A stretch of 64,000 nucleotides of DNA from Candidatus Acidiferrales bacterium (GTDB lineage: Bacteria > Acidobacteriota > Terriglobia > Acidiferrales > UBA7541): contig JASHRM010000048.1 in NCBI GenBank assembly GCA_030037315.1, forward strand, positions 748 to 64,747. The letters are read 5' to 3'. Of the stretch, positions 17,154 through 60,736 are shown in pieces; within the stretch, counting starts at the first letter, position 1, and each line of letters begins with the position of its first letter. The notes under the pieces were generated by a model that searched no databases, was not told the origin of the DNA, and saw only the letters and a program-made list of their open reading frames with translations. A program made the position numbers and the translations under genes.

Positions 17154-18203
17154 CTAATTGGTTGGTATTGTTCGCTTTAGTTCGGTCCGCTGGAGCCAAA
17201 TGAGAAGAAGCGCCATGGGTACGAGGGCGATTAGGAAGAAGACGATGCCGCCGCGGCGGTGCAGATTCCCATATAGAAAACCGGGGTTTACGTAGACGGC
17301 CAGGGTCGAAAGAGTGGCAATACGGAGCCCATTCTTGAGAATCGCCAGGGGAAGGATGACGGCACAGAGAAGCAGCCTTTTCCAAGTCGTTCGCAGATAG
17401 AGGTAGCTTGCGAGCACCGTGGTGATGAGCAGAGCGAGGCTAGATCGAATGCCGCTGCATTCCTCCGCCACGCGAATCGCGACCCCCGGCAAGCGGAAGA
17501 TCAGTCCCTGGCGAAGATACGGAACGCCCGCCAACTGAAAGAACCACGCCGCGGCGTTCGCACTTTGGTTCTGCAAAAATCCAATGATGTAGGACAGAAT
17601 CGGCTCCGGTATCGGAACGCAGAAAAACATGAATAGTATGGGGAATTGCGCCTTTTGGAACGCACGCGTTCCGAAGAAGGAGATGAAAGCTCCGAGCCAC
17701 ACCAGTAGAACACTAAATACGAAGAGTGCGCCCTGATTTTCAGGCCCAAGACTCCCATGGTGCACCCGCGTCGCAAATAAACATAGCAGTCCGGGAACGA
17801 TTAGGGCGGCGCCGAGAATCCAGGCGTAAGAAATCTCGGAAAAAACCCTTTTGCGCCCTTCGTAAATGAAAAACAGACTTACAAACGGGATAACGAGAAT
17901 CTGCGAAAAACTATCCACTGTCCAAACAAGCGATGCGACTGCTTTGGTTAAGTCCCACGCGACCGCGAACGGTAGAAGGCAAACGACAACGCATCCGCCG
18001 ACCCGAGACCATCGCAGCGGTTTGGTGGCGAGGGCGGCTCGGCTGACTTTTATATCTTTGGCTGTGGAATGCACGGACCTAGGAACGCACACCGTTGGGG
18101 ATAAGGGCCTCGCTAACTTCGTATTGCATTCGATCGCCATCGAGAACTGCGTAGGCGATCCGAGCTCTTTCCTTCTCCGCTCCTTCGATTTCCCACTTTC
18201 CAT
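17154..18203 (-). CDS. Exosortase (EpsH/Xrt family transpeptidase)
   Basis: Polytopic. Hallmark motifs are VAEECSGIRSSLALL (catalytic Cys), ILKNGLRIATL (conserved Arg) and GNLHRRGGIVFF (conserved His). The start is uncertain: the ORF-track start overlaps the upstream gene by 125 nt. Alternatives are the ATG at 18140 or the GTG at 18074, which is 5 nt past the upstream stop. Confidence 0.85.
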   Translation of the reverse strand: MESGKSKERRRKELGSPTQFSMAIECNTKLARPLSPTVCVPRSVHSTAKDIKVSRAALATKPLRWSRVGGCVVVCLLPFAVAWDLTKAVASLVWTVDSFSQILVIPFVSLFFIYEGRKRVFSEISYAWILGAALIVPGLLCLFATRVHHGSLGPENQGALFVFSVLLVWLGAFISFFGTRAFQKAQFPILFMFFCVPIPEPILSYIIGFLQNQSANAAAWFFQLAGVPYLRQGLIFRLPGVAIRVAEECSGIRSSLALLITTVLASYLYLRTTWKRLLLCAVILPLAILKNGLRIATLSTLAVYVNPGFLYGNLHRRGGIVFFLIALVPMALLLIWLQRTELKRTIPTN

Positions 18204-24536: not shown

Positions 24537-26051
24537 TCAAACCGCATCAGCAGCTCCCAATGGCTTGGCGAATGTTTTTGCCGTCAACACTTTTTTCACT
24601 ACATCGAGATCTCGCCTTCGAAGCTCGCCGACAATTGCCAATACGCCAAGATACACAACGGTTCCGGCAGCAACGGACGCCGTCAAAGCAGATATTCCCC
24701 AGTGAGAAAAATAAACAACGTACACCACCGGTGCCAGCGCAACCAGAGCCGCCAAATAGATCCGAAACGTTGTTCTCCAGGGGAAACGGACTTGGACGTG
24801 GCGAAGGGTGTACAAGGATCCACCCAATACGCCTGCAATTTGGGCCACACAGTTTGCAACCGCAGCGCCGAGAGCTGCGTACCTTGGAATAAGAATGAAA
24901 TCCAACAGGATGTTAACGATGGCTACGACTGTTCCATACTTGGCGATGAAGCCTTGTTTTTCGATGCCATAAAGCAGCGGGGATGTAACCACTCCGATGC
25001 TCGTGATGGGCACGCACGCGATCAGGACCTGCAACGGAACCGCTACCGCTAGGAATTGAACCCCATAAATGAGTCGGACCAAAGGAACCGCGAGCACGAC
25101 TCCTAAGAAACACACGGGAACCATGAGCATCTCTAGGTACTTCACTGCGTTTACGAACATCAGCCCGACTTCCTGGAGGCCGCTTCGACCATAGCTTTCC
25201 GAATACAGAGGCATCAAGGTTGTCGAAAAAGTGCTCGTGACATCGTTCAGCTTCGAAGCCATCGAATAGGCGAGTGTATAAAAACCGATCTGAGCAATCG
25301 TCGAATAGGACTTGAGAAAAAGAATCTCTGACCTCTGCCACACAACGGCATCGATCAAAAGAATGTAGGAAACCGTAAGCGAGAACTTGCGAATGCGATG
25401 AAAAGGATCTTCGACTTGCGGTCCGGCACTCGCGGCAGGCTCTAGTTTAACTAGGAACTTGTCGATATCGCGGTAATACAGAACGGTGGCGATGATTAAT
25501 CCAGTAAGCGTCGCCCACAGCATTCCAGCAACCCCGGCATGCAGGAAGCCCGCGATTCCAACAGACGCCACTGATGAGAGAGAGACGTAAACACTGATTC
25601 GCGTCAGTCGGTCGAATCGCTGGATCCCGGCTAATACCGAACCCAGGCTCTGCTGGAGAGCCTGAGCAAAGAGAAGAATCGCAGCAACACCGATGATGTT
25701 GCGGTAGGGACTCTTGAATAACATGAAGCAAGCGGTCAGCACGGCGACGGCTGCAGCGACGATGACTTGCAACCGCAGCAGTCTCTTACTGACACGAATC
25801 GCCGTCCCAACTTGACCACTTCCAAGATATTCCGCCACATATTTCGTAAGGGCGCTGGGCAACCCGATGCTCGCTAGGACTCCGAGGGTGCCAACGATCC
25901 ACATGGCGTAACCGTAGACACCCATGTCAAGCGGACCCAAGCTTCGCGCGATGATCGCCGATGTCAGAACAGTTCCCCCCATGGTGATTGCCAATCGACC
26001 ACCATTGAAGAGAAAGTTCCTTACCGCCTTGCTGGAGATATCACTGCTCAT
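24537..26051 (-). CDS. MOP/PST-family oligosaccharide flippase (Wzx-like), copy 2
   Basis: 504 aa, about 14 TM segments, polar N-terminus then LTSAIIARSLGPLDMGVYGY. 4-nt overlap with the upstream GT4. Confidence 0.8.
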   Translation of the reverse strand: MSSDISSKAVRNFLFNGGRLAITMGGTVLTSAIIARSLGPLDMGVYGYAMWIVGTLGVLASIGLPSALTKYVAEYLGSGQVGTAIRVSKRLLRLQVIVAAAVAVLTACFMLFKSPYRNIIGVAAILLFAQALQQSLGSVLAGIQRFDRLTRISVYVSLSSVASVGIAGFLHAGVAGMLWATLTGLIIATVLYYRDIDKFLVKLEPAASAGPQVEDPFHRIRKFSLTVSYILLIDAVVWQRSEILFLKSYSTIAQIGFYTLAYSMASKLNDVTSTFSTTLMPLYSESYGRSGLQEVGLMFVNAVKYLEMLMVPVCFLGVVLAVPLVRLIYGVQFLAVAVPLQVLIACVPITSIGVVTSPLLYGIEKQGFIAKYGTVVAIVNILLDFILIPRYAALGAAVANCVAQIAGVLGGSLYTLRHVQVRFPWRTTFRIYLAALVALAPVVYVVYFSHWGISALTASVAAGTVVYLGVLAIVGELRRRDLDVVKKVLTAKTFAKPLGAADAV

Positions 26052-35964: not shown

Positions 35965-37377
35965 CTAAGACGACGGGATCGTACGGGAGTCAGGCACGCG
36001 CGCTGGATGGAACGAGCGATTCGTGGAATCGCTGATCGGAAATTTCACCACTATCCGGCCCGGTACCTCGGCGCGCCGCCGGACATCGAGTCCGATCATC
36101 AGAAAAACAAGCCACATCATGCCGCTCCGAAAACTCGCCTCAGTGATCGTGAAAAACAGCATCACAGTCCAAATTGCCAGGCTGAGCGACGCGATGCCGG
36201 GGGCAAGACGGAACCGTCGGCAAATTACTATGAAAGCGCCAATCAGGATGCCGATGGCAAGCGCGACTCCGATGAGTCCCAAGTTCAAATACACTTCAAG
36301 ATATCCGTTATGGGCCTCGTTGATTCCAACGAGGGCGTTTCGCCAAAAGTACTCGAGGCGAGGTCCCATCCAAAAGCTCGCATATCCGGTCCCCAGTAGT
36401 GGATTGGTATGCATGCCTAGAACAACGGACCAAATCTTGGTTCTGTCAGTGAGTGTGGGATCTTTTCCGACAGCGGCTGCCATATTCCCGCTCATTCCCA
36501 ACCCAAATGCGAGAATGAGATATGCGAGATAAATCAAAGGGATCGACGTTTTGAGCAGCCACGAGCGCTTCTGAAGAAAATGGCTATGTGCTCCCAAAAT
36601 GACAAGACAACCCATAATCATGCAAATACGGCATGTCGCACTATTGGCGGAAATTAGCAGAGACAGGGACATTACAAAGAATGGAATATCTACAAGAATC
36701 ATACGTTTTGTGCGGCTGTTTTTGCGGTCGCCCCACAGTGCTACCAGGTCCCAAAAGAAGAAAAGTCCGCAGAGCAACGCGAGCAAGCCAAGGAGGTTCT
36801 TACCCGTCGTGGGCCCTACGAACATGACAGCACCCGTCCAAACGGCATACGTCCGACTGAGAGCCGGAAAATACTTGTCCAACAGGATTGAGAGGGGAAT
36901 CAGCAGATAGCCTAGTCGCCGGAGAACCCACACCATGGCTTCCTCAGGGCGAGGATCGGAAAGCACTACAAGAACTACCAGATAGTCGCCAAAGTCTCGG
37001 ACCCAGTGTTTGAAGGAAACGAACGAAAAATCGGACCAGAAAACACTCGCAAGAGCGAATGAGAGGTACAACGTGAGGGCTATATTACGTCCGAGAAATC
37101 CTCCCCAATCGAATTGCCGCGATATCAAAACCATCACAGCGAGGCCGATCAGGATCAAGTCGACGGTTCGATCTATCGGATTCCCGTTTAGCAGAGCTTC
37201 AGCAGCCTGGCCGACATGACCACCAATCCACTGCGAAGGCAGCCGGGTTGCAGAGAAAAATATCCAGATCACTGGAATCCAGAGGGCCGGAGAGACTCCT
37301 TTCACTTTGGCAGGATCAAACCACAAGAGCGCCAAAAGAAGAACGAGCCAGAGAATGAGTGCTAGAAAGGGTGGCAT
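35965..37377 (-). CDS. O-antigen ligase/polymerase-family membrane protein (Wzy_C-type)
   Basis: 470 aa, polytopic, with the INEAHNGYLEVYLNLGLIG motif typical of the O-antigen ligase/Wzy family. Confidence 0.8.
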   Translation of the reverse strand: MPPFLALILWLVLLLALLWFDPAKVKGVSPALWIPVIWIFFSATRLPSQWIGGHVGQAAEALLNGNPIDRTVDLILIGLAVMVLISRQFDWGGFLGRNIALTLYLSFALASVFWSDFSFVSFKHWVRDFGDYLVVLVVLSDPRPEEAMVWVLRRLGYLLIPLSILLDKYFPALSRTYAVWTGAVMFVGPTTGKNLLGLLALLCGLFFFWDLVALWGDRKNSRTKRMILVDIPFFVMSLSLLISANSATCRICMIMGCLVILGAHSHFLQKRSWLLKTSIPLIYLAYLILAFGLGMSGNMAAAVGKDPTLTDRTKIWSVVLGMHTNPLLGTGYASFWMGPRLEYFWRNALVGINEAHNGYLEVYLNLGLIGVALAIGILIGAFIVICRRFRLAPGIASLSLAIWTVMLFFTITEASFRSGMMWLVFLMIGLDVRRRAEVPGRIVVKFPISDSTNRSFHPARVPDSRTIPSS

Positions 37378-43350: not shown

Positions 43351-43365
43351 GTGCGTTTCTTTTTG

Positions 43366-43926: not shown

Positions 43927-44717
43927 AGATTCTGCCCCTGACCGCCGCCTAGTCCACGAACTGCGTGATGGAGATTCCGGCTTAACTCTTGAGCATGCGC
44001 GTAATCTTCCGGAGTCCCAATGTCGATGAACATACCTTCCTGCTCGATCGCGTACATGCCTGATTCAAGGAGACGCGGGAACAAATCTTTTTCGAGGCTC
44101 GACCTACCGTCTGGAATATGTTGCAGAGCGGCCCGGCTAAACACGTACACACCCGCGTTAATCAAACCGGGGGTTTTTGTACCGGTCTTTTCCACGAACC
44201 GGACGACTCTATTTTCTTTGTCCAGATCGAGAGTTCCGTATCGCCTGGCGTCCGGAACTCGGCAGGCAGCCATTGTAACAACACTCTTGCGCGCGTGATG
44301 AAATCGGATGAGCTTGCCAAAATCAATTTCCAAAAATGAGTCGCCGTTCATGACCAGGACATCTGGAGCTTGTCCGATGTGCTTTTCGGCGAATTTCAGT
44401 GCGCCTCCGGTACCAAGCGGCTCGTTTTCCCTAGAGTATGCGATATCGACATCCCATTTCTGCCCGTCCCTAAAATGCTCTTGAATCTGTTCGGCCAGAT
44501 GACCAGTGCTCATCACCAGGCGCCTGATTCCTTGCGCCCGCAGCTGCAGGACGAGTAGCTCAAGAAAAGGAGTGCCTCCTACGCGAGCCAGCGGTTTGGC
44601 AGTCAAAGGAACCGCGGATTGCAGCCGCGTGCCAAACCCTCCGACGAGCAGCACTGCCGGCATGGCCTTATCCACACGCCGCTGGACTGGAGCGTCAGGC
44701 CGCGACATCACGTTCAT
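43923..44717 (-). CDS. hddC: Sugar-1-phosphate nucleotidyltransferase (heptose-1-phosphate guanylyltransferase-like)
   Basis: AVLLVGGFGTRLQ...KPLARVGG signature. 4-nt overlaps on both sides with gmhB and the SDR. Confidence 0.75.
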   Translation of the reverse strand: MNVMSRPDAPVQRRVDKAMPAVLLVGGFGTRLQSAVPLTAKPLARVGGTPFLELLVLQLRAQGIRRLVMSTGHLAEQIQEHFRDGQKWDVDIAYSRENEPLGTGGALKFAEKHIGQAPDVLVMNGDSFLEIDFGKLIRFHHARKSVVTMAACRVPDARRYGTLDLDKENRVVRFVEKTGTKTPGLINAGVYVFSRAALQHIPDGRSSLEKDLFPRLLESGMYAIEQEGMFIDIGTPEDYAHAQELSRNLHHAVRGLGGGQGQNL

Positions 44718-49085: not shown

Positions 49086-50291
49086 TCAGCGCGTGGCGAA
49101 GGAAGCCGCGAACTCCGAGATGGCTTCCGTCACGAGCTTTTGTTGATCGAGGGTGAGGCCCGCGAACATGGGTAGAGAGAGAATTTGCTCCGCAGCCCCT
49201 TCGGCTTCAGGAAAATCACCTTTTGCCCATGCCATTGCGCTGTAGGCTTTTTGCAGATGCAGTGGAACTGGGTAATGAATGCCGGTGCCGATACCAGCAT
49301 TGGTTAAATGTTTTTGCAGTTCATCTCGGAAGGGAGTGCGGACAACGTAGAGGTGATATACGGCCTTCGAGTAGCTCGCTTGAGTGGGCGCACTAACGCT
49401 GCCCTTCATGGGTTTAAGCAACTCGTCATAGATGCGCGCCGCTGCACGGCGTTGTTCATTCCAATCCGCCAGATGTTTCAGCTTTATGCGCAACATGCCG
49501 GCTTGAATCGAATCGAGGCGGCCGTTGTAGCCTTCGACCTCGTGGTAATACTTCTTTGCCGACCCGTGGTCGCGAAGCACAGCGCTCCTGCGAGCAACCT
49601 CCGGATCATTCGTAGTTATCGCGCCCCCCTCACCACAGGCTCCAAGATTCTTACCCGGGTAGAAACTGAAAGCAGCAGCGCGTCCCACGGAACCGGCCTT
49701 GAGCCAGCGATTTTGCTTCTTCGAAAAATATTCAGCGCCATGGGCCTGGCAAGCATCTTCGATGACGATCAGGTGGTATTTCTCGGCGAGTTCAAGAATC
49801 GGATCCATATCGGCCATTTGACCGAACAGATGAACCGGGACGATCGCTGTGACCGGCTGATTCAGAGCTTTCTGAATGCAACGCCCAGTTTTTGCGTCAA
49901 AAACGCACTGGGTTTCGAGATAGCTCTGTAGCTTTCGGCTATCAATGTTAAATGTAATCGGGTCGATATCGACAAAATCGGGACGCGCGCCAGCCTGGGA
50001 AATTGCTTCTGTGGTTGCGATAAAAGTATTCGGCACAGTGATCACAATATCGCCTGGCTGAACACCGGCAGCTGTAAGCGCGAAACGAAGCGCATCCGTA
50101 CCACTGTTTACTCCCACGCAATATTCGGCTTCGCAAAATTGCGCGAATTCCTTCTCGAGTCCTTCAACCTCAGGGCCCCCGATGAAACCGGCTGTCTCAA
50201 TCACTCTCTTGCAGACCTGCAGTAATTCGGGTTCGATGGCCCGATGAAGAGAAACCAGATCAACAAATGGGATTTTTGCGTTCTGTGTCAT
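49086..50291 (-). CDS. DegT/DnrJ/EryC1/StrS-family PLP sugar aminotransferase (WbpE-like)
   Basis: IPFVDL...EFAQFCEAEYCVGVNSGTDAL, VPVHLFG, FSFYPGKNLGACGEGG (Lys in the YPGKN context). Confidence 0.9.
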   Translation of the reverse strand: MTQNAKIPFVDLVSLHRAIEPELLQVCKRVIETAGFIGGPEVEGLEKEFAQFCEAEYCVGVNSGTDALRFALTAAGVQPGDIVITVPNTFIATTEAISQAGARPDFVDIDPITFNIDSRKLQSYLETQCVFDAKTGRCIQKALNQPVTAIVPVHLFGQMADMDPILELAEKYHLIVIEDACQAHGAEYFSKKQNRWLKAGSVGRAAAFSFYPGKNLGACGEGGAITTNDPEVARRSAVLRDHGSAKKYYHEVEGYNGRLDSIQAGMLRIKLKHLADWNEQRRAAARIYDELLKPMKGSVSAPTQASYSKAVYHLYVVRTPFRDELQKHLTNAGIGTGIHYPVPLHLQKAYSAMAWAKGDFPEAEGAAEQILSLPMFAGLTLDQQKLVTEAISEFAASFATR

Positions 50292-50797
50292 CCGTTCACC
50301 TTTGATGGAGTTGAAGCTTCTATGGATCGCAGAACCTTTGCCGGATTACCGGCGACAATCGTGTTTGCGGGAACATCGCGGGTGACTACGCTGCCGGCGC
50401 CCACAATCGCATTTTCACCGATAACGACGTTCGAGAGGATCGTGGATCCCGATCCGATCGAGGCGCCCCGCTTTATGAGAGTGGTTTCAACGCGCCAATC
50501 GCTTTCCGTCTGCAGCCCGCCTTCCGGTGTCGTTGCTCGTGGATAGGAATCGTTGATGAATGTCACGCCATGGCCTACAAAAACGTTGTCCTCAATCGTT
50601 ACGCCCTCGCAAACGAAAGTATGGCTGGAAATCTTGCAGCGGCGGCCCACGGTGGAATTTTTCTGAATTTCCACGAAGGCACCGATCTTCGTTTCATCGC
50701 CGATCGAACAGCCGTAAAGATTGATGAACTTGGAAAGCTTCACCGAACGGCCCAGCTTTACGCTCGGCGCGATCGAGCAAAATTCGTGTTCGGTCAC
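50288..50797 (-). CDS. Hexapeptide-repeat (left-handed beta-helix) sugar N-acetyltransferase (WbpD-like)
   Basis: Repeated [LIV]-G-x4 units (IGDETKIGAFVEIQKNSTVGRRCKISSHTFV...IGENAIVGAGSVV). Confidence 0.85.
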   Translation of the reverse strand: MTEHEFCSIAPSVKLGRSVKLSKFINLYGCSIGDETKIGAFVEIQKNSTVGRRCKISSHTFVCEGVTIEDNVFVGHGVTFINDSYPRATTPEGGLQTESDWRVETTLIKRGASIGSGSTILSNVVIGENAIVGAGSVVTRDVPANTIVAGNPAKVLRSIEASTPSKVNG

Positions 50798-51795
50798 AGG
50801 CGCACCAACTCTCCTCTTTTGTGAATGGAAGCTTCTGCCGCTTCCAGCATCTTCACAATGCGCAAACCAGCCTCGCCATCATTGAACGGCGTCTGGTCGT
50901 TCTTAATGCAGTCAGCGAAGTAGCCGAGCTCCACGTGAAGGGCTTCTAGCTGCTCAACCTGTGGGGCCCACATATCGCCTGTGCGGTAACTCACCAGCAC
51001 GTCGCGAATGCCTTCGCCCGAAGCGATCTTGACTCCCTTGTCATAGACGCGGATCTTTTCATCGGCGACGAGATCATTCCATACCAGCATTTTCTTTTGA
51101 CCGCCGATTAATGTGGTCCGGATCTTCACTGGCGAGAGCCAGTTGACGTTGATGTGGGCGATCACGTTATGCGGGAAGTAAATCGTCATAAACGCGACGT
51201 CTTCCACGCCGTTGAGGTGCCGCTCGCCAGTTGCCACAACTGCTTCCGGCTCGCCCTTAATGATGTAATCCATGATCGAGAGATCGTGCGGAGCCAGGTC
51301 CCAGATCACGCTCACGTCGTGTTGGAAGAGTCCGAGGTTAACACGCAGGGAATCGTAGTAGTAGAGGTCGCCAAGGGCGCCGCTTTCCGTCAATTCACGG
51401 ATTTTCTTGACGGCCCCAGTGAACAAGAACGTATGATCCACCATGATTTTGAGCTTCTTGCGGGCTGCGAGCTCAATCAACTCTTGGGCTTGCTCTGTGT
51501 TCGAAGTAAACGGCTTCTCGACGAAAACGTGCTTTCCGTTTTCGAGCGCTTTCTTCGCCAGTTCGTAATGGGTCCAAACAGGAGTGATCACTGCCACCGC
51601 GTCGATCGACGACGATGTCAGAATTTCCGAAGGGTCGGAACACGTCGCAATTGTCGGATAGACTTTTCTGACCCGCCCGAGCGCGCTGGAGCTTTTATCG
51701 CACACCATTTCGACGCAAGTAGAATCCAGCCCTTGCAGATTCCTAACTATATTGGGACCCCAGTAACCGTATCCAACCACACCGACTCGAATCAT
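50794..51795 (-). CDS. Gfo/Idh/MocA-family NAD-dependent sugar oxidoreductase (WbpB-like)
   Basis: MIRVGVVGYGYWGPN, EKPF motif (HVFVEKPFT). Confidence 0.85.
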   Translation of the reverse strand: MIRVGVVGYGYWGPNIVRNLQGLDSTCVEMVCDKSSSALGRVRKVYPTIATCSDPSEILTSSSIDAVAVITPVWTHYELAKKALENGKHVFVEKPFTSNTEQAQELIELAARKKLKIMVDHTFLFTGAVKKIRELTESGALGDLYYYDSLRVNLGLFQHDVSVIWDLAPHDLSIMDYIIKGEPEAVVATGERHLNGVEDVAFMTIYFPHNVIAHINVNWLSPVKIRTTLIGGQKKMLVWNDLVADEKIRVYDKGVKIASGEGIRDVLVSYRTGDMWAPQVEQLEALHVELGYFADCIKNDQTPFNDGEAGLRIVKMLEAAEASIHKRGELVRL

Positions 51796-51947: not shown

Positions 51948-53120
51948 TCAGAACGCGCCATCGCCTGTGAGCACAGCCCAGGGCGTCGCAAGTAGGATCT
52001 TAAGATCCAACCACAACGACCACGACTGCGAATAGCGAAGGTCGAGCCGGACCATGTCGTTGAAACTGGTGCGACTGCGCCCACTGATTTGCCATAGCCC
52101 CGTGACACCGGGCTTCAGCTCATGCACACGGCGGCGGTGCCAGAAATCGTATTGCTCGAACTCATAAGGAACCGGAGGACGGGGGCCGACAAGGGACATC
52201 TCGCCCCGTAGCACGTTCAAAAATTGCGGGAATTCGTCCAAGCTCGTCCGGCGCAGAAATCTTCCGATCGGAGTTATTCTCGGATCGTTGGTGATCTTGT
52301 AGATCGGTTCGTCTTCACCTTGTGGATTCCGGCCATTTTGGCCCGCAATAAACTGCTGAACGAACTCGCGATGAATCTTGGGATCACTATCGACGTACAT
52401 CGTCCGGAATTTGAAGCACTTGAAGCTTTTTCCGAATTGGCCCAAGCGCTCCTGGGCGAAAATCACAGGGCCCTTTGAAGTCAACTTGATGATAACGGCA
52501 ATCACAGCCAATGCTGGCGATAGGAGCATCAGAAGAATCGCGCTTCCCGCTATATCGATAGCGCGTTTTGCAGCAGTCGTCGATTGCTTCTTTTTCGAGA
52601 CTTTCGCAGAAATATCGGGATAGAGCTTTATATCGGCAATTCTGTCTGTGCCGTTGTCATGCCAACTCTCCGGATACAAGTGGAGAGTCACGATCAACCT
52701 CGATGCGATCTCGGGCTCAAGATTCTCACGTATCGCACGAATCACTTTGGAGTGGAGAACGTCAGTCACCAGACTTGGCGCCTCCATATTGATCTCAGTA
52801 AAAATAATCGCGAGAGTGTCGTTCTCTTCGTACCAGCCGATCATGTCGCTCTCGCGAGTTGCGCCGCACACGACCGACGTCAACCGTTGCAGGAAGTCCG
52901 CTGCCTTTCCATTTTTGGGCAGCGCATGGGCGTCTACCAGCATTAGCGCGAACGGCTTACGTGATCGCTCGGCGCGCCTGCGCTCAAGGGCCAGCATCGC
53001 GTGGAAGATATCCTGACGCAGCACGCAATCGAGCCTGTCAGAAATTCGATCGACGCCCGACAGCATGTAGCTGTTATCGATTCGTCCTAGTTTCGATTCC
53101 TTCGTCGCCGTCGCTCTCAC
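51948..53120 (-). CDS. Priming polyprenyl-phosphate phosphoglycosyltransferase (bacterial sugar transferase) with an N-terminal degenerate GGDEF-like domain
   Basis: The C-terminal half reads RAIDIAGSAILLMLLSPALAVIAVIIKLTSKGPVIFAQERLG...FKFRTM...DEFPQFLNVLRGEMSLVGPRP...KPGVTGLWQ. The N-terminal ~185 aa are soluble and align by eye with the GGDEF fold (RESD-MIGWY-EENDT). Confidence 0.85.
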   Translation of the reverse strand: MRATATKESKLGRIDNSYMLSGVDRISDRLDCVLRQDIFHAMLALERRRAERSRKPFALMLVDAHALPKNGKAADFLQRLTSVVCGATRESDMIGWYEENDTLAIIFTEINMEAPSLVTDVLHSKVIRAIRENLEPEIASRLIVTLHLYPESWHDNGTDRIADIKLYPDISAKVSKKKQSTTAAKRAIDIAGSAILLMLLSPALAVIAVIIKLTSKGPVIFAQERLGQFGKSFKCFKFRTMYVDSDPKIHREFVQQFIAGQNGRNPQGEDEPIYKITNDPRITPIGRFLRRTSLDEFPQFLNVLRGEMSLVGPRPPVPYEFEQYDFWHRRRVHELKPGVTGLWQISGRSRTSFNDMVRLDLRYSQSWSLWLDLKILLATPWAVLTGDGAF

Positions 53121-53193
53121 AGGATTACTCGCAGCCCTTATCTTACGTTCTAAGAACCTAGTCTATTTGCAGATCATTCCGTATTGCAGTCGC

Positions 53194-53760
53194 TTATGCC
53201 ATTCCACCCTGCAACAGAACTCGTGTTGCTGCAGTTTGAATCCTGTGGTTCTCTTGAACCGGCTTTATACACGCCCGGTCTATTTCGAGAGCGACCGACC
53301 GACGCAACAGCGAGATGGAAACCACAACTCGGTACCCACCCTTGAAATTGATTAATATTCCTTCTAACCCGTGAAAAGAATCCTGTTCGATCCTGATTTT
53401 CTGACCTATTTCCAGGTAAGGCCAGGGCTCTACATGTATGCCTGAGGACACCGCGGATTGAATGGAGGCGATCTCGCTGTCCTCGACGGGTTGCGGAACT
53501 CGGCCCTGGCCCACGACTGCGATCACTCCAGGCGTGACCAATATCGGCAACCTTTTCTGGGCTTCAAACTGGCAAAACACGTAACCAGGAAAGAGCGCGG
53601 CTCTGGCTTCTCGAAATTTTCCGTTTGATCGCTTGTGAACTTTATAGGTCGGAAGAAAAGTCTGGTAACCCTTGCCGGAAAGAAGCAATGCGGTTGAGCT
53701 TTCCCAACGCGTTCTCACTTGTAAGGCAAACCATCTCGCGCTGCCAGATTCGACGCTCAT
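53194..53760 (-). CDS. NusG-family paralog (RfaH/UpxY-like operon-specific antiterminator)
   Basis: NGN domain WFALQVRTRWESSTALLLSGKGYQTFLPTY...LFPGYVFCQF and KOW-like IGQKIRIEQDSFHGLEGIL. First gene after a 459-bp gap. Confidence 0.8.
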   Translation of the reverse strand: MSVESGSARWFALQVRTRWESSTALLLSGKGYQTFLPTYKVHKRSNGKFREARAALFPGYVFCQFEAQKRLPILVTPGVIAVVGQGRVPQPVEDSEIASIQSAVSSGIHVEPWPYLEIGQKIRIEQDSFHGLEGILINFKGGYRVVVSISLLRRSVALEIDRACIKPVQENHRIQTAATRVLLQGGMA

Positions 53761-54219: not shown

Positions 54220-55164
54220 CTAAGGCGTCTGATCCGTTTCGTCTAACTCGCTCTCGGTCCCGTAGGCTCGATAGTAATATGAGCCGTACATTCCTGCTTC
54301 GTCGACGGCATTCAATACCACGCCCACGAGATTATGAGCTTGTAGCTCTTGCCGAGCCCGCTCTGCAACCGAACTCGGAGTGGACCCGGCTTTCACAACT
54401 AAGAGTACACCGTCACAAAGTTCGGCCAGGATAGAAGCGTCGGCGACAGGTAGACAGGGTGGGGAATCGAGTATGACCCAGTCAAAAACAGGCGAAACTC
54501 GATCAAGCAATTTCTTGAAGGCTCCGTTGGACAGCAGTTCGCTCGGATTCGCCGCTTCACTTCCACCAGGAATGAAGCAGAGATCGTCCTGCTGGCTGTA
54601 CTGAATAATTGACAATTCGTCGGCGTCGCCTCGGAGATAATCGGTCAGTCCAGGAGAAGAAGGGGCACCAAGCAAAGTGTGTACCCGGGCGCAACGCAAG
54701 TCCGCGTCGATAATCAACGCTCGCCGGTCCGGTTGTCGCACAATTGCCTGGGCAAGGTTTGCAGCAACGAACGTCTTACCCTCGCCGGGTACCGAGCTGG
54801 TTACGAGCACACTCTTGATCGGCTGATTTCCGCGAAGCTGATACAACCGCGAGCGAAGCGTGCGGAACTGCTCGGCCCCGTGAACGCTGAGACCAGGGTT
54901 AAAAAATACGTTCATATTTGGATCAAGCTGCCACTCGGCATGCGAGGATCGCGTGCGTAAATCGTCAAAACGCAGATAGCCGGGCGTGGCCGACGCAATG
55001 GGCAGAGCGCCGACGGGGGTCTCCATGGATCCGACCGCGGGGGTATCAGCACTCCAGGCGGGCGCGGCGGTTTGGGTTTCCATCGGGGGTGCAACAATCT
55101 CTGTGATTTGGCTCGGCGTGCGCTCTTGTTCCGCTTTTTTCAGGGCATCGTGAATGCGACTCAT
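54220..55164 (-). CDS. BY-kinase (CpsD/CapB/EpsG-type tyrosine autokinase)
   Basis: MSRIHDALKKAEQE N-terminus, Walker A SSVPGEGKTFVAANLA, Walker A' LIIDADLR, and the C-terminal Tyr cluster GMYGSYYYRAYG. Confidence 0.85.
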   Translation of the reverse strand: MSRIHDALKKAEQERTPSQITEIVAPPMETQTAAPAWSADTPAVGSMETPVGALPIASATPGYLRFDDLRTRSSHAEWQLDPNMNVFFNPGLSVHGAEQFRTLRSRLYQLRGNQPIKSVLVTSSVPGEGKTFVAANLAQAIVRQPDRRALIIDADLRCARVHTLLGAPSSPGLTDYLRGDADELSIIQYSQQDDLCFIPGGSEAANPSELLSNGAFKKLLDRVSPVFDWVILDSPPCLPVADASILAELCDGVLLVVKAGSTPSSVAERARQELQAHNLVGVVLNAVDEAGMYGSYYYRAYGTESELDETDQTP

Positions 55165-56111
55165 GGTTTCCTTTCGCGCGACGGCACAGCACTGAGGTGT
55201 CGAAGGCGCACAAGTAGTTCGTCAAGATTTTCAAGCAAAGCCTGTGTATTCGCCGTCTGTTGAGCCGCAGCAGTCGATGTACCGGAAGCAACTGGCGCAA
55301 CCTCATCAAGCTGAAACTCTCTCGCAACTTCCTCGACCAGATTGCCCGGTACAGGACGCACGCTGTCCACATATGCGTTGATCATCGAATGTTCGCAGAG
55401 CAAATTGACAACTCTGGGGATACCGCGCGAGTACGTGTGTACGGCCTCGATAGCTTCCTTAGAAAAGATCGGGGTGCCGTTTGCCCCAGCAATGCGCAAT
55501 CGCTCCGCAATGTATCCAAACGTTTCGTCAAGGTTCAGCGGGGCGGTGCGGCATCGGAGCGTAATTCGTTGCCGAAGTTGCCGAAGCTCCGGGAGCTTTA
55601 GTTTTTCCTCAAGTTCCGGCTGGCCCGTCAGCACGATCTGAAGTAGCTTTTCCGTGGCCGTTTCGAGATTTGTAAGCAGACGAATTTCTTCCAAGACTTC
55701 TGCGCCGAGGTTTTGGGCCTCGTCGACTATCAGCACGGCAGTCTCACCCGCCCGATAGCGCTCTAACAACCACTGGTTGAGCCGAAGCAGGACTTGGCTC
55801 TTTTCTCGCGAGTCGAAGGGAATTTCAAAATCAGCCATCATGAAATCGAAGAGATGGTTGACTTCAAGGCGAGAATTGAAGATGTACGCCGTCGCCACGC
55901 GTTGCCCACGCAACCAATCGAGCAGTCGGTTTAGAAGAGTCGTTTTCCCAGTCCCCACCTCACCCGTCAGCAAAATGAAGCCCTTGCGATTTTGAATTCC
56001 ATAGGTGAGACCGGCCAAGGCTTCCTGAATCTGCCGCGTCATGTACAAATAACGCGGGTCAGGATTCACGTTGAACGGGCTCTCTCGAAGCCCAAAGAAT
56101 CTCTGATACAT
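55161..56111 (-). CDS. ExeA-like AAA ATPase (PEP-CTERM-locus putative secretion ATPase type)
   Basis: MYQRFFGLRESPFNVNPDPRYLY...FILLTGEVGTGKTTLL...VLIVDEAQNL. Confidence 0.85.
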   Translation of the reverse strand: MYQRFFGLRESPFNVNPDPRYLYMTRQIQEALAGLTYGIQNRKGFILLTGEVGTGKTTLLNRLLDWLRGQRVATAYIFNSRLEVNHLFDFMMADFEIPFDSREKSQVLLRLNQWLLERYRAGETAVLIVDEAQNLGAEVLEEIRLLTNLETATEKLLQIVLTGQPELEEKLKLPELRQLRQRITLRCRTAPLNLDETFGYIAERLRIAGANGTPIFSKEAIEAVHTYSRGIPRVVNLLCEHSMINAYVDSVRPVPGNLVEEVAREFQLDEVAPVASGTSTAAAQQTANTQALLENLDELLVRLRHLSAVPSRERKP

Positions 56112-56116
56112 CTTAA

Positions 56117-57649
56117 TTAGGCTCCTCGAGACAATCCGAGACTGGAACTGGACTCCGGCAAATTCGATTTCTTGAGAGGTTTTCGGCTCGAAATCGGCCC
56201 AATGGCCGGGACCATCGCTAGCACAGGCAGCCGCAGGGCAAATTCCACATCACGCTCTGTCCGGAGCGATTTGTCCTGCATTTCTAAAACGAAAGCGATG
56301 CCCACTCCCAAAGCCAACCCTCCGCCAAATCCTCCCAAGAGGAAATTAAGCCCATTCGGAAATGAAGGGCTGTCAGGCAAGTTCGCGGGATCCAGAATCG
56401 TAAATTGCTCGCTCTGCTGTTGTGATTGCAGATCACCTGCCATCTTGGCTTCCTCTCGCTTTTTCAAGAGGTCATTGTAGGAATCGAGCGCTGTCTGATA
56501 GCCGCGCGTCAGCTCCTTATATTGTTCTTCCACAGCGGGACTAGTTTGAATCCGGCCCTGGTAAACTTGGATTTCTTTCTTGATCTCTTCCTGCTCCCTA
56601 CTTTTCTCTGCGATCACTTGTTCAGCGGTGTGAATTTGGCTGCGGTACTGCGTGATCTGTGCGGGCTCAACGGTTGACTTCTGTGACGGAGCAACGGGAG
56701 TTTTCGCATCGTTCGATTCCGCGATCCTCTTTTGAAGAACCGCGATATCGGCTTTGGCCTTAATCACGTCCGGATAATCATCCGTATAACGAGCCTGAAG
56801 GCTTGCCAGCTGTGTTTGTAATGCAACAAGCTGCTGTTGCAACGTTTCCGGGTTGTGCCCTGTCTGGGATTCCTGCCAAGCCGCAAGCTGCTGCGTCAGC
56901 ATCGACTCGGCGAAGCTCTTATCCTGCTGCGCGCGCGCCAGGGCCTGGCTCGCTGCATCCAGTTGCGTAGTCAAATCGGTGAGCAGGTTCAGGTTTCTTG
57001 TTTCATCCTCCGGTAACGAGCCGATGTAGTGGCTCTTGAACGCGGCGAGCTTTGCATCCTGTTGATCGAGATTCGCCTTCGCATCCGCCAATTGCTGGGT
57101 AAGAAATCGGGTCGTTTGTTCGGAATGTTGTTCGCGCAATTCGGAGTCTTCGGAGATAAACATCGACGTGATGGTCGTGCAAACGCCTTGCGCGGCGCGC
57201 GGATTATCCAGCGTCACGGAGATGATGAATCCTGGCAGATCTCTCGCTCCCGTTTCAGCCATTGGTTCGATCGGCGTGATGTCGATCGCCTTCTGCAGCC
57301 GCGCGACTAAGTCTTCCATCGGCCGCTTATCGATATCGTCTCGATACAGGCCGAATTGACGGATGACGGGTTCCAGCCTAGTTCTGCTGAGAATCTGCTG
57401 CTGCATACTCGCCAATTGTTGACTGATGGATGTGACATCGATCTGCGGAACGATTTGGTCCGAAACCGTCGGAGGCTGCACCAGAACAACCGTCTGTGAC
57501 TTATATCGAGCCGGAAGAAATATGGAAACGCCGTAAGCCAGCGGGCCTCCGACGAGGGTGAGCAACAAAATCGGCACCCAGCGTCGCCGCAGCATGGCGA
57601 CGTAATCTTCAAAAGTAAGTTCACGCTGATGTTGTTCGTCCACTGCCAT
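56117..57649 (-). CDS. Polysaccharide chain-length determinant / co-polymerase (Wzz/GumC-like, PCP family)
   Basis: N-terminal TM then YKSQTVVLV, a long coiled-coil middle section, a second TM near the C-terminus (LLGGFGGGLALGVGIAFVLE), 510 aa. Confidence 0.85.
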   Translation of the reverse strand: MAVDEQHQRELTFEDYVAMLRRRWVPILLLTLVGGPLAYGVSIFLPARYKSQTVVLVQPPTVSDQIVPQIDVTSISQQLASMQQQILSRTRLEPVIRQFGLYRDDIDKRPMEDLVARLQKAIDITPIEPMAETGARDLPGFIISVTLDNPRAAQGVCTTITSMFISEDSELREQHSEQTTRFLTQQLADAKANLDQQDAKLAAFKSHYIGSLPEDETRNLNLLTDLTTQLDAASQALARAQQDKSFAESMLTQQLAAWQESQTGHNPETLQQQLVALQTQLASLQARYTDDYPDVIKAKADIAVLQKRIAESNDAKTPVAPSQKSTVEPAQITQYRSQIHTAEQVIAEKSREQEEIKKEIQVYQGRIQTSPAVEEQYKELTRGYQTALDSYNDLLKKREEAKMAGDLQSQQQSEQFTILDPANLPDSPSFPNGLNFLLGGFGGGLALGVGIAFVLEMQDKSLRTERDVEFALRLPVLAMVPAIGPISSRKPLKKSNLPESSSSLGLSRGA

Positions 57650-57668
57650 CTCCTATCGATCAGCTCTT

Positions 57669-59168
57669 TTAGAACGGAAGCGGCCGTGATAGCCAGCCGA
57701 TCCCAACTGTGACCGAATTGCGTATGATGTTCGTGCCGCACGTAGGCAAACAGAAATTCTCATTCGAATCCTGGTACTGAAACTCATAGGCGACCGAAAG
57801 CCGCAACGTGCGCCCAATCGGGTGCGTCAGATTCGCGCTCGTAAACCAATAATCGTAATTCTGAGGCGCCACACTATCCGAAATGATCGTTGTGCCAGCA
57901 CTGCGCGAAAATCCCGCATTCACGTTGCCGGAAAGTGTCCGCGTTATTTGGCGGCTGAAAAACCCGGTAGCCATGTCGTTTACCGAACCCGCTAACACGC
58001 CGGATCCAGCGTAGACGCCGTGATCAAAGGAGACACCCAACTGCGAGCGTTCGAACGCATAGGTAAGAGATGTGTTCAGCGCCCACGTAACCTGCGAAAA
58101 CGAAGTGATGGTCGGCGGCTCACCCGTCGTTCCCTGATTCAGAGTGATCGGAAACCTTGAGAAAATGAATTGCGGGCCTGCCGCAATTTGGAACGCGAGC
58201 CTACCGGTGACGCGCCGCGCGTAGGACAACTGCACGGTATGTGTATTGATCGACTGATCGAAACCGCTATATCGGATACCATTGTACGTATAAAAGACCG
58301 CGACCGTATCCTTTCGCGTCGCCTGGTAATTATATCCGGCGCGCGCGATCACATCGCCAGATGTCAGCAGACTGCTGCTGAAGTAATCAAGCAACGTGTA
58401 TCCTCCGGCGAATGTCAGCGACGACCGGCGGCTGAGATAACGGTCGACTTCCAGGAAAGATGAATTCGACAAATTCTGACCGAAACCCGTCAGCAGGGAT
58501 TGACCGGATGTAAACCCTGCACCCAGCCCGGATGCACCGCCACCAGGCAAGGAAATACCGCCGTTCCCAAATCCGAACGATGATTCGGGCAAGTAACTCA
58601 GCTGATCGAATAGTCCGACGCTCCATCGCCGGAAATTCAATCTGTCAGAAAAACCTAACTCCTGGACAATGCCGTTGCCAACATCGCTCTGGTTGGAGAA
58701 CATTCCACCGGCTAGATAACTTAGAGACAGCATCGAATTCGACGAATTTCGAACTAGATCTACACCGCCGTAAACCGCAGCCCATGCTCCCCAGCCCGTA
58801 CTTCCAGCCGTCTCTTGGGGATTCGAATCGGCCGTGGCTGTTAGATCCACATATGGCTGCCAATAGCTATGGTTCATCGGAATGCCTAGCGACAAGTTCT
58901 GAACGCCGGAAAGCGGCCTGTTATCTGGAGCCAATTCCTGCGTCTCTTGGCCAGTTCCATTGTCAGCCGCAGCCGCCATCGGCGAGCGATAAGCTGGAAT
59001 CGGGGGTGTGCTTTGGACTGGCCCCTGATTCGAGTTTTGGTCGCCGCCTTGACTGTTGTTTTGTCCGTTGTTTTGATCTTGAGGCTGCTGCTGAGCGCGG
59101 GAAGGCAGTACGCACACCACGGCGAACAAGAGAGAGAGAAAAGCAGCTCGATGTAATGTACGTTTCAT
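57669..59168 (-). CDS. Predicted outer-membrane beta-barrel protein (PEP-CTERM-locus associated type)
   Basis: Signal peptide MKRTLHRAAFLSLLFAVVCVLPSRAQ from the ATG at 59168. A Q/N/G-rich linker is followed by alternating-hydrophobicity strands. It ends in ...GIGWLSRPLPF (terminal Phe). Confidence 0.6.
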   Translation of the reverse strand: MKRTLHRAAFLSLLFAVVCVLPSRAQQQPQDQNNGQNNSQGGDQNSNQGPVQSTPPIPAYRSPMAAAADNGTGQETQELAPDNRPLSGVQNLSLGIPMNHSYWQPYVDLTATADSNPQETAGSTGWGAWAAVYGGVDLVRNSSNSMLSLSYLAGGMFSNQSDVGNGIVQELGFSDRLNFRRWSVGLFDQLSYLPESSFGFGNGGISLPGGGASGLGAGFTSGQSLLTGFGQNLSNSSFLEVDRYLSRRSSLTFAGGYTLLDYFSSSLLTSGDVIARAGYNYQATRKDTVAVFYTYNGIRYSGFDQSINTHTVQLSYARRVTGRLAFQIAAGPQFIFSRFPITLNQGTTGEPPTITSFSQVTWALNTSLTYAFERSQLGVSFDHGVYAGSGVLAGSVNDMATGFFSRQITRTLSGNVNAGFSRSAGTTIISDSVAPQNYDYWFTSANLTHPIGRTLRLSVAYEFQYQDSNENFCLPTCGTNIIRNSVTVGIGWLSRPLPF

Positions 59169-59172
59169 GGCG

Positions 59173-59790
59173 CTATGGGACAACAATCGTGTCTCCCGCT
59201 TTGAGGCTCACGTTCTCGTCAGGACGTTTCCCGTTAACTACATCTTTGTAGTTGAACGGATATTTCACCTGTTTGCCATTTTCCATTCGAAACATGTAAA
59301 TCTTCTTCAAATTTGCGAATTGCGTGAAACCGCCCGCACTCGACAAGGCCTGGAGAAAGGTCATATTAGGCAGCAAGGGATATGCTCCCGCCCGCGATAC
59401 TTCACCCATGATGTAAACGCGCTGACTATTGATTTGACTCACGATTACGGTTACTTGAGGATCGGTAACAAATTTTTTGAGATCAGTCGTGATCTGGGCT
59501 GCCAGCTGCGTCGGAGTCAAGCCTGCGGCTTGCACGTCATTGAGCAACGGTAAAGAAATCTTTCCATCCGGCCGCACGGGAACCGTGCGAGTTAGCTCAG
59601 GCTCCTTCCAAACGCTGATGTCCAGAATGTCCTGTGCACCAATCGTGTAGTTCGGATCACTAGCTGCCTGTTTCGGTGTCTCGGACTGGGCCGCATTTGT
59701 TTGGGCCTGCGTCAGCGCCGGTAAGAGCGCGATTGCCAGGGCCGTCAGTACCCAAGCTTGTAATCGTCGATGCATTGACTTCGCTCCCAT
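59173..59790 (-). CDS. Polysaccharide export protein (Wza/EpsE-like: Poly_export + SLBB)
   Basis: Signal peptide, YTIGAQDILDISVW, PVRPDGKISLPLL and VYIMGEV motifs. 205 aa. Confidence 0.85.
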   Translation of the reverse strand: MGAKSMHRRLQAWVLTALAIALLPALTQAQTNAAQSETPKQAASDPNYTIGAQDILDISVWKEPELTRTVPVRPDGKISLPLLNDVQAAGLTPTQLAAQITTDLKKFVTDPQVTVIVSQINSQRVYIMGEVSRAGAYPLLPNMTFLQALSSAGGFTQFANLKKIYMFRMENGKQVKYPFNYKDVVNGKRPDENVSLKAGDTIVVP

Positions 59791-59791
59791 C

Positions 59792-60736
59792 TCAGTGGCT
59801 CACCTCATCCACACCAATTTGTTTCAATTTGTACAGCAAGGATTTGTAGCTGATCTGTAATTCGCGCGCCGCCCGCTTGCGGTTCCACCGCGTGCGCGAT
59901 AGAGCCTTTAATATCAGCTCCCGCTCCGCCTCTCGCGAGGCTGCTCGTGCGGCCGCCTTCAGCGAATAGGTTTCAGAGGTCTTGTCCCTTGCAGAAATCG
60001 CCATTTGTTCTTCGATTCCGGCTAGGGCCAGCTTCTCGTCGCCAAGCGCGACGAGTTTTCTCGCAACATTTTCAAGTTCTCGAATGTTCCCAGGCCACGA
60101 ATAATCGATTAGCGACTGGAGCGCCTCCGCGCTGAAGTCCGGGCGTGGCCTGCCGAGTTCTCCCGCGTGCTTTGTCAGGAAAAATTCGAGCAGAGAGGGA
60201 ATATCTTCTTTGCGCTCGCGAAGAGGCGGCAGCCTCAAACAGATGCAACTAATCCTGTAATAAAGATCGCTGCGAAAACGGCCGGCGCGCATCTCCTGAT
60301 CCAGATTCCGGCTCGTTGTTGAAATGAGCCTCACATTGAAAGCGCTGCGGCACGATTCTCCTTCACCGTCAGGCAGAGCGCATAACAAATCACGCTGGCA
60401 GGAAACATCCAAATCCGCAATCTCGTCCAGAAAGAGTGTCCGAGTGCCGTTGAATTCCTGTCCTCGAGAATTCGATCCGATTTCAGAGAACAAGTCGTTG
60501 GATCGGATCGAACCGCAAGAGACTCGTATGAGGGGTGCCGTTGCATGCCGCGAAAGACGGTGCGCCCGTCGAGCAAACATCTCTTTTCCAGTGCCGCTCT
60601 CGCCAACGAAAAGAATCGGAATATTCGTGGGCGCAATTTCCGAAAGAACTCCCTCCAATGTTAGCGTGGCGCGGCTGACACCTGTGAACCATCCAAGCGG
60701 CGGCGAGGCCAACTCAGTTGTATTGTCGATTGTCAT
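59792..60736 (-). CDS. AAA+ enhancer-binding-protein-like transcriptional regulator without a sensory domain or the GAFTGA loop
   Basis: Walker A VGESGTGKEMFA, Walker B TLFLDEI, FRSDLYYRI, LPPLRERKEDIP, WPGNIRELEN, and the Fis-type HTH RKRAARELQISYKSLLYKLKQ. Only 12 aa lie between SEIG and TLFLDEI, where canonical bEBPs have about 23 including GAFTGA. Confidence 0.85.
   Translation of the reverse strand: MTIDNTTELASPPLGWFTGVSRATLTLEGVLSEIAPTNIPILFVGESGTGKEMFARRAHRLSRHATAPLIRVSCGSIRSNDLFSEIGSNSRGQEFNGTRTLFLDEIADLDVSCQRDLLCALPDGEGESCRSAFNVRLISTTSRNLDQEMRAGRFRSDLYYRISCICLRLPPLRERKEDIPSLLEFFLTKHAGELGRPRPDFSAEALQSLIDYSWPGNIRELENVARKLVALGDEKLALAGIEEQMAISARDKTSETYSLKAAARAASREAERELILKALSRTRWNRKRAARELQISYKSLLYKLKQIGVDEVSH

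Follow-up and report, generated by a model that had tools for sequence, protein, structure and literature searches.

We examined a window of 64,000 nucleotides from Candidatus Acidiferrales bacterium (GenBank assembly GCA_030037315.1, contig JASHRM010000048.1, positions 748 to 64,747), to which all coordinates refer unless another locus is named. On its minus strand, at 51948..53120 (GTG start, stop codon included), lies a gene for a 390-residue protein in which a degenerate GGDEF-fold domain (hereafter GGDEF*) is fused to a monotopic phosphoglycosyl transferase (PGT). The gene sits in a cluster of ~60 kb, nearly all of it on the minus strand, which is a Wzx/Wzy-dependent, exosortase-associated exopolysaccharide (EPS) cluster. 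An exact copy of the protein sequence exists in a public protein collection. A preliminary description of this gene had given its open reading frame (ORF), strand, length and coordinates, and the peptides RESD (residues 89-92), EENDT (98-102) and DAHALPKNGK (63-72); all of these were exact.

The protein opens with a leader (residues 1-27; 53040..53120, minus strand, as for all features of this gene) that is weakly conserved, with low column conservation in our set of 86 domain sequences (the focal one and 85 from genome loci), and predicted to be disordered, with a predicted local distance difference test (pLDDT) value <50 up to residues 24-27. GGDEF*, a soluble domain, spans residues 28-172 (52605..53039), with support from a family profile searched against PDB, from Foldseek and from Pfam matches across family members. 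It ends near residue 170 with ADIKLYPDI, the counterpart of the canonical AD.ALY.AK helix, and from there only a short, basic, Lys-rich linker of 12 residues, read directly from the sequence and of low pLDDT (residues 173-184, KVSKKKQSTTAA, 52569..52604), leads to the membrane helix of the PGT. The monotopic PGT catalytic core (Bac_transf; PF02397, TIGR03025) occupies residues 185-384 (51969..52568). The stop-to-stop frame of the ORF runs over 51951..53162, and no in-frame stop falls across the domain boundary.

The C-terminal half is a standard monotopic bacterial sugar transferase, as had been described, with a complete Bac_transf domain: it matches PF02397 with 227.4 bits (threshold 27; E 1.2e-67) over profile positions 1-178 of 179. 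It also passes the cut-off of TIGR03025, EPS_sugtrans (300.0 bits, cut-off 295.55), over model positions 217-444 only, the N-terminal half of that model, with its transmembrane (TM) helices and domain of unknown function (DUF), being absent. A re-entrant membrane helix with a Ser-Pro break (S201-P202) was recognised at residues 186-213 (RAIDIAGSAILLMLLSPALAVIAVIIKL, 52482..52565) by direct reading and by homology to the N-terminal helix of PglC and WbaP. The catalytic Asp-Glu dyad, whose role in monotopic PGTs (monoPGTs) is established from PglC, is intact at D295-E296 (52233..52238), and the PRP motif of monoPGTs is found at P313-R314-P315 (52176..52184). Both are invariant among 54 full-length homologues, and so are K185, R186, D189 and P202; S201, though present in the focal protein, is outside the invariant and near-invariant columns. 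With dyad, PRP motif and Ser-Pro helix all present, the PGT half looks functional. A membrane helix of the re-entrant type keeps the PGT core and the N-terminal domain on the same, cytoplasmic side, so that the latter must be cytoplasmic.

The fold of that N-terminal domain is hard to see from one sequence. Alone, the focal protein scored 13.7-14.5 bits against PF00990 (E 0.03-0.052; gathering score 23.8), with further sub-threshold matches to the NCBIfam models TIGR00254 (E 0.041) and SiaD (E 0.005). A search with residues 1-187 retrieved 65 homologues, many of which run on into the PGT domain; a few homologue fragments had been named "GGDEF domain-containing protein" by JGI. We therefore used a family profile built from an alignment of 29 trimmed N-terminal domains, searched against all PDB sequences. 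Its seven best matches were all GGDEF domains, including GcbC (5euh, 5e-7), DosC (4zve, 8.4e-5) and 6khu and 3ign (both 0.025), and the first non-GGDEF match appeared at E 0.22. The GcbC structure 5euh contains cyclic di-GMP (c-di-GMP) that occupies the inhibitory site (I-site). PF00990 itself was matched by 22 of the 29 family members at E<=1 (best 1.6e-6). In the alignment, ERRRAERSRKP of helix alpha1 is in register with EWFRAQRSGKP of GcbC, LMLVD of strand beta1 with LLMID, RESD with RPAD, RSSD or RQSD (GcbC, DosC and 3ign all having their RxxD at this place), and IIFTE with VILAE.

Structure prediction led to the same fold. An AlphaFold2 model of the N-terminal domain, built from a 43-sequence alignment, reached a pLDDT of ~85-94 over residues 30-150 and has its secondary-structure elements in the canonical GGDEF order (alpha1-beta1-alpha2-beta2-hairpin-beta3-alpha3-beta4). 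A Foldseek search of PDB returned GGDEF domains for all of the top 50 hits (best E 3.7e-7; TM-score 0.71, normalised on the 131-residue 6khu). The preliminary description had aligned the first ~185 residues with a diguanylate-cyclase fold by eye: a hidden Markov model (HMM) comparison of residues 1-185 with PF00990 stays below threshold for the single sequence, whereas the family profile and the structural comparison are both significant, and the first ~175 residues can be assigned to the GGDEF fold. As far as computation allows, this fold is established.

Judged from the family alignments, the selective pattern is one in which the catalytic and substrate-binding apparatus has decayed and the allosteric I-site has been frozen. 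The active site (A-site) had been described as destroyed, and it is: the beta2-beta3 hairpin that replaces GG(D/E)EF reads EENDTL (residues 98-103, 52812..52829), the three residues after GWY vary freely across the family (EEG, KEG, KKG, RNG, ASD and others), and the motif [GAS]G[DE]EF is absent from all 237 family proteins. DAHALPKNGK (residues 63-72, 52905..52934), which had been described as standing at the metal/GTP site, comprises the end of strand beta1 and a shortened remnant of the D-x-D-x-F-K-x-x-N-D GTP/metal loop. This site is indeed lost, with the correction that the loop after beta1 is also ~6 residues shorter than the canonical one in the profile alignment, its K, N and D residues being gone. 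D63, the equivalent of the metal-binding Asp of beta1, is kept as D or E in 84/86 sequences.

The primary I-site motif, in contrast, is present as RESD (residues 89-92, 52845..52856), with R89 and D92 kept in 86/86 sequences and in 172/172 domain instances of a more diverse set, drawn from representatives that share <50% identity. It is followed in strand beta2 by GWY (residues 95-97, 52830..52838), an extension that gives the family signature R-[ED]-[TS]-D-x-x-G-W-Y; in the diverse set, R-x-x-D-x-x-G-W-[YHF] is found in 171/172 instances. Of the register RxxD, five residues, GG(D/E)EF that had been proposed, the RxxD part holds, being canonical and invariant. The ungapped equation of E98-T102 with GG(D/E)EF does not, for the hairpin is one residue longer: HMMER places GG(D/E)EF on E98-(E99)-N100-D101-T102-L103, and the motif is destroyed in either alignment.

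Conservation is also strong at the end of helix alpha1 (ERRRAERSRKP, residues 46-56, 52953..52985). The residues invariant in the 86 sequences are L43, E46, R49, R52, S53, L59, R89, D92, G95, W96 and P150; R47, E51, F57, L61, E90, Y97, E109 and H147 are 98-99% conserved (E109 in 85/86), and position 125 is K or R in 86/86. Through the GcbC alignment and the WspR and PleD sequences, we take R52 to be the counterpart of R198 in WspR and R49 that of R313 in PleD, both of them arginines that come from a neighbouring GGDEF domain and complete the I-site. In WspR, c-di-GMP at the I-site is contacted by R242 of the RxxD motif and by R198, which is donated by a neighbouring GGDEF domain, and the variants R242A and R198A each purify nucleotide-free (PMC2270323).

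A survey of one genome per GTDB species yielded at least 544 confirmed loci that encode a GGDEF* domain, and an exhaustive HMM search of 1.84 billion cluster representatives brought up 2848 clusters with a threshold of E<=1e-3, a number that drops to 1531 for E<=1e-10 and to 169 for E<=1e-30. The best 80 loci, on which the counts of fused copies and of neighbouring genes rest, come almost entirely from Acidobacteriota, as Terriglobia or "Acidiferrales" metagenome-assembled genomes (MAGs), with up to 64% identity; at the protein level, the N-terminal region is kept at 35-64% identity. Two of these 80 loci are in MAGs with other labels, Dormibacterota (L027) and Verrucomicrobiia (L059), which could reflect mis-binning or horizontal transfer. 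Full-length members carry only such public names as "sugar transferase", "LPS/colanic/teichoic acid biosynthesis glycosyltransferase" or "polyprenyl glycosylphosphotransferase".

That public annotation ignores the domain might suggest that this N-terminal part of the protein is a relic in decay or the artefact of a wrong start, with the small PGT functional alone, and PGTs of ~200 residues such as PglC do function alone. Against this reading stand the 35-64% identity together with invariant motifs, the number of loci and of clusters at E<=1e-10, the confidently predicted fold, the uninterrupted frame at the domain boundary and the fusion itself, which is in frame with the PGT in 75 of the 85 domain copies of the best 80 loci. 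On the conservation seen in these sequences we consider a relic or mis-start extremely improbable and essentially excluded.

Three of the 10 unfused copies are frameshifted or adjacent fragments (L013, L032, L060). We considered whether all apparent stand-alone domains might be such frameshift artefacts and rejected this, as no PGT is encoded within 8 kb of the domain in L075, L061, L067 and L077; L070, L074 and L038, which hold a stand-alone copy beside an intact fusion, also speak against it. The stand-alone genes (L075 7893-8426, L067 7758-8423, L070 3242-3961, L074 3520-4023, L038 14332-14859, L061 7869-8435 and L077 7875-8444, in the coordinates of each locus) encode ~170-220 residues and keep all motifs, the Arg-rich helix and RxxD-x-x-GWY among them. 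In L067, L070, L074 and L038 they are placed immediately upstream of genes for a polysaccharide co-polymerase (PCP) and a bacterial tyrosine kinase (BY-kinase); in L075 and L077 the distance to these genes is at most ~2.5 kb, and in L061 it is larger. This placement suggests that GGDEF* may have a second role, in the control of chain length or polymerisation. A further arrangement, two GGDEF* domains on one PGT, occurs in P0066 (628 residues), P0073 (558) and P0086 (505), with RxxD-x-x-GWY in both copies. One further protein, P0099 (905 residues), carries an additional aspartokinase-like region at its upstream end, possibly through the fusion of gene calls.

These features are best read as those of a putative c-di-GMP receptor that would control the PGT through I-site-bridged dimerisation or re-orientation, a reading to which, from the sequence evidence, we give an even chance. 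An intercalated c-di-GMP dimer would bind R89 and D92 of one GGDEF* domain, and R52 or R49 from another such domain, that of the partner subunit or, in the tandem homologues, the second copy in the chain, would cap it. Acting through the 12-residue linker, such bridging would change how the PGT cores oligomerise or are oriented at the membrane, and thereby switch the transfer of the first sugar-phosphate to undecaprenyl phosphate. If other EPS systems are a guide, it is high c-di-GMP that would turn this step on, although the sign is a guess. In WspR and PleD, I-site-bound (c-di-GMP)2 bridges two GGDEF domains (PMC2270323), and GGDEF* would fit bridging of this kind because the RxxD motif and the alpha1 arginines are jointly invariant, tandem forms exist and the linker has only 12 residues. 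We infer, somewhat more tentatively and at a little under even probability, that a phylum-wide acidobacterial family uses an I-site-only GGDEF domain as a c-di-GMP-driven dimerisation switch on the PGT, with the stand-alone form possibly working on the PCP/BY-kinase.

Several observations weigh against a c-di-GMP receptor. R390, third of the primary I-site residues in PleD, presumably corresponds to the hydrophobic V121, the nearest conserved basic positions among the 86 sequences, 123 (R or H in ~80%) and K125, being 1-4 residues away. Invariance or near-invariance reaches past the minimal I-site to E90, T91, G95, W96 and Y97, a block that could mark a protein-protein interface instead of a ligand site. 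The profile search of PDB detected no sequence-level similarity to the receptor PelD. An AlphaFold2 model of the full-length protein reached a predicted template modelling score (pTM) of only 0.42, with a pLDDT of 50-78 in the PGT half, so computation lends no support to the two domains being coupled in a defined way. In the window, family scans of its ORFs showed no gene for making or breaking c-di-GMP, and Rfam gave neither a c-di-GMP riboswitch nor any other RNA family. That no other gene within the 64 kb encodes a Bac_transf PGT counts in favour of the receptor reading, as does the active-looking PGT core. No polytopic PGTs of the WecA/MraY type turned up in the Pfam and NCBIfam scans of the examined ORFs, in which no search was aimed at them; the label of only initiating enzyme holds for the Bac_transf family alone.

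The first two of these points would fit a GGDEF* domain that binds no ligand and serves as a dimerisation or docking module, joining the PGT to other parts of the machinery, for instance the PCP/BY-kinase complex or the next glycosyltransferase; protein contacts would then account for the conservation of the Arg-rich helix and the RxxD-x-x-GWY block. The stand-alone paralogues beside PCP and BY-kinase genes likewise suggest a partner other than the PGT. We nevertheless regard such a ligand-free module, though it is the main rival, as unlikely. The kept residues are exactly the canonical c-di-GMP binders in their canonical register, while the other nucleotide-handling parts have decayed. The RxxD motif is dispensable for the GGDEF fold, and many active cyclases are without it; maintenance of the fold thus fails to explain its presence in 172/172 instances. 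Docking and c-di-GMP binding are moreover compatible; GcbC contacts its effector LapD through a surface on its GGDEF domain.

A ligand other than c-di-GMP has also to be considered, such as GTP, UMP, a UDP-sugar or another cyclic dinucleotide like 3'3'-cyclic GMP-AMP, bound in the manner of the WbaP DUF or, as in some degenerate GGDEF domains, as GTP at the A-site. There is precedent for nucleotide feedback at a PGT, in that the WbaP DUF binds UMP, UDP and UTP, and UMP inhibits WbaP (PMC10942596). The retention of an acidic residue at position 63 and of E109 would also agree with such a ligand. The A-site hairpin, on the other hand, is variable across the family, and the shortened GTP loop without its K, N and D residues makes a conserved A-site ligand unlikely. 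I-sites, for their part, are selective for c-di-GMP. Another nucleotide seems less likely, given that conservation within GGDEF* is lowest in the A-site region, and we rate this explanation as improbable.

As a c-di-GMP receptor, GGDEF* would have relatives in function. PelD of the Pseudomonas aeruginosa Pel system, PopA, SgmT, YdaK of B. subtilis and PssE of Listeria are degenerate-GGDEF I-site receptors which, like GGDEF*, have a dead GGDEF motif with RxxD. These receptors are reported to sit on the cytoplasmic face of the membrane and to serve one exopolysaccharide machine each, as GGDEF*-PGT does, and the logic by which I-site-bound c-di-GMP licenses polysaccharide production would be expected to apply to GGDEF* as well, where binding is only predicted. 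They are, however, separate proteins (PelD being TM-GAF-GGDEF) that control synthase-dependent systems, or transcription or proteolysis, whereas GGDEF* is covalently linked to a PGT that initiates a Wzx/Wzy-dependent pathway. Its nearest relatives in sequence are active, I-site-bearing cyclases such as GcbC and DosC, and not PelD.

From the side of the transferase, small monoPGTs of the PglC type have the same Bac_transf core as the C-terminal 205 residues of the focal protein, but lack a soluble domain in front of it. In WbaP, WcaJ and typical TIGR03025 members, the place of GGDEF* is taken by four TM helices and a Rossmann-like DUF. In WbaP this DUF is a non-catalytic nucleotide-binding domain, proposed to act as allosteric regulator of the gatekeeper step and in dimerisation (PMC10942596). 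WbaP thus resembles GGDEF*-PGT in having a regulatory domain N-terminal to the PGT core, and differs in the fold of that domain (Rossmann-like as against GGDEF), in the ligand (the product UMP as against a predicted second messenger) and in its extra TM helices. A further example is EpsW of Myxococcus xanthus, which in its phosphorylated form (EpsW~P) acts post-translationally and directly on EpsZ, the PGT with which a Wzx/Wzy EPS pathway starts (PMC12802240). EpsW is a separate receiver domain that is phosphorylated by a chemosensory kinase, while GGDEF* is fused to its PGT or, in some loci, stands alone. Regulation of a PGT by an appended or partner domain, of the kind proposed for GGDEF*, has precedent in the WbaP DUF (PMC10942596) and in EpsW~P (PMC12802240). 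The TIGR03013 (EpsB_2) PGT of XrtA/PEP-CTERM loci belongs to the same catalytic family and is found in the same type of locus (PrsT, PCP, BY-kinase, outer-membrane polysaccharide export protein (OPX), ATPase, FemAB-like protein, exosortase); its N-terminal architecture is different, and the focal protein misses the cut-off of this XrtA/PEP-CTERM glycosyltransferase model, with 147.4 bits against 393.35.

GGDEF*-PGT forms a large family of its own, mainly acidobacterial and distinct from all the systems compared here. We found no description of its architecture in the literature on GGDEF or c-di-GMP together with PGTs, PF02397 or Acidobacteria, a search in which the 2021 survey of monoPGT fusions was not covered. 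That survey (by O'Toole et al., in PNAS) reportedly lists receiver-domain and other regulatory fusions (cited in PMC12802240); GGDEF*-PGT is unlikely to have been picked up in it, because Pfam misses most GGDEF* domains.

At the PGT step, undecaprenyl phosphate, which is scarce, and nucleotide sugars, which are costly, become committed. To our knowledge, the direct points of c-di-GMP control in polysaccharide synthesis are the synthases or their partner proteins. The preliminary description had placed known c-di-GMP control at this same level, in agreement with the literature, in which post-translational control of Wzx/Wzy pathways is described as poorly understood (PMC12802240) and regulation of their PGT step is an acknowledged gap (PMC10942596, PMC12802240). 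If GGDEF* is a c-di-GMP receptor, it would be the first case of post-translational control of a Wzx/Wzy pathway by c-di-GMP at the step that commits undecaprenyl phosphate, and would represent a new class of c-di-GMP effector that is fused to an enzyme other than a synthase. Second-messenger control would thereby extend to the commonest type of polysaccharide pathway, and GGDEF*-PGT would offer a simple, purifiable two-domain system for the allosteric control of a monotopic membrane enzyme. The domain is invisible to standard annotation, which says "sugar transferase" only. Acidobacteriota of the soil, a habitat in which EPS production influences aggregation and the storage of carbon, carry this family in abundance.

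The neighbours of the focal gene are shared with many of the related loci. Immediately upstream is a NusG paralogue (53194..53760, minus strand; PF02357 E 2.8e-16), whose best NCBIfam match is the UpxY-type antiterminator model NF033644 (93 bits, below the cut-off of 100); such a paralogue precedes the fusion gene in 54/80 loci. Downstream, and also on the minus strand, are a WbpB-like GFO/IDH/MocA oxidoreductase (50794..51795), a WbpD-like hexapeptide acetyltransferase (50288..50797) and a WbpE-like DegT aminotransferase (49086..50291), a trio for an acetamido-amino sugar that is kept downstream in ~42/80 loci.

Farther upstream, an export and regulation block (54220..60736, minus strand) encodes a BY-kinase, a PEP-CTERM-type ATPase, a PCP/Wzz chain-length determinant, a 505-residue protein, a short OPX and a sigma54 activator; a PrsT-like TPR protein, also upstream, is encoded on the plus strand (TIGR02917, 355.5 against a cut-off of 312.2). 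An exosortase of the EpsH/Xrt family is found at 17154..18203 on the minus strand (TIGR02602, 106.6 against 105.55; TIGR04178, 58.8 against 23). These two proteins, both above cut-off, bear out the exosortase-associated EPS system that had been proposed for this locus. For the other export genes (PCP, BY-kinase, OPX, ATPase and a FemAB-like protein, the last also downstream in the cluster), XrtA-system models fit best, somewhat below their equivalog cut-offs. The cluster further holds, by family scan, a Wzx-type MOP flippase (24537..26051, minus strand) and a Wzy_C polymerase (35965..37377), and for this reason we assign the pathway to the Wzx/Wzy-dependent type; a second, Wzx-like flippase of the MOP family lies at 9771-11252 on the minus strand.

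Some further features of the cluster were seen in passing. The exosortase is closest in subtype to XrtC (VPDSG-CTERM), with 200 bits against a cut-off of 300, the XrtA model giving 134 against 208. The OPX (205 residues, Poly_export and SLBB domains) overlaps the start of the 505-residue ORF (57669-59790 for the two, minus strand); its best matches are pepcterm_export and EpsY of M. xanthus, both below cut-off. The 505-residue ORF belongs to no family and gives a weak hint of an outer-membrane beta-barrel (E 0.0026); together with the OPX it may make up a composite OPX/beta-barrel translocon like that of EpsY and EpsX. The sigma54 activator (59792-60736, minus strand; 314 residues) has its AAA+ domain from about residue 20 and neither a receiver nor a sensor domain; genes of the same type occur near stand-alone GGDEF* in L075 and L077.

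The two MOP flippases and more than 10 glycosyltransferases, set against a single Bac_transf PGT, hint that two repeat units or two polymers may share one initiating enzyme. Two asparagine-synthase-like amidotransferases are encoded on the minus strand (32395-34215 and 39076-40965), the first of which matches the XrtA/PEP-CTERM amidotransferase model over its N-terminal half only, with 64 bits against 817. Genes for heptose nucleotides (GmhA, a GHMP kinase, a HAD phosphatase and a nucleotidyltransferase; 28735-29355 and 42292-44717, minus strand) suggest that the polymer contains heptose.

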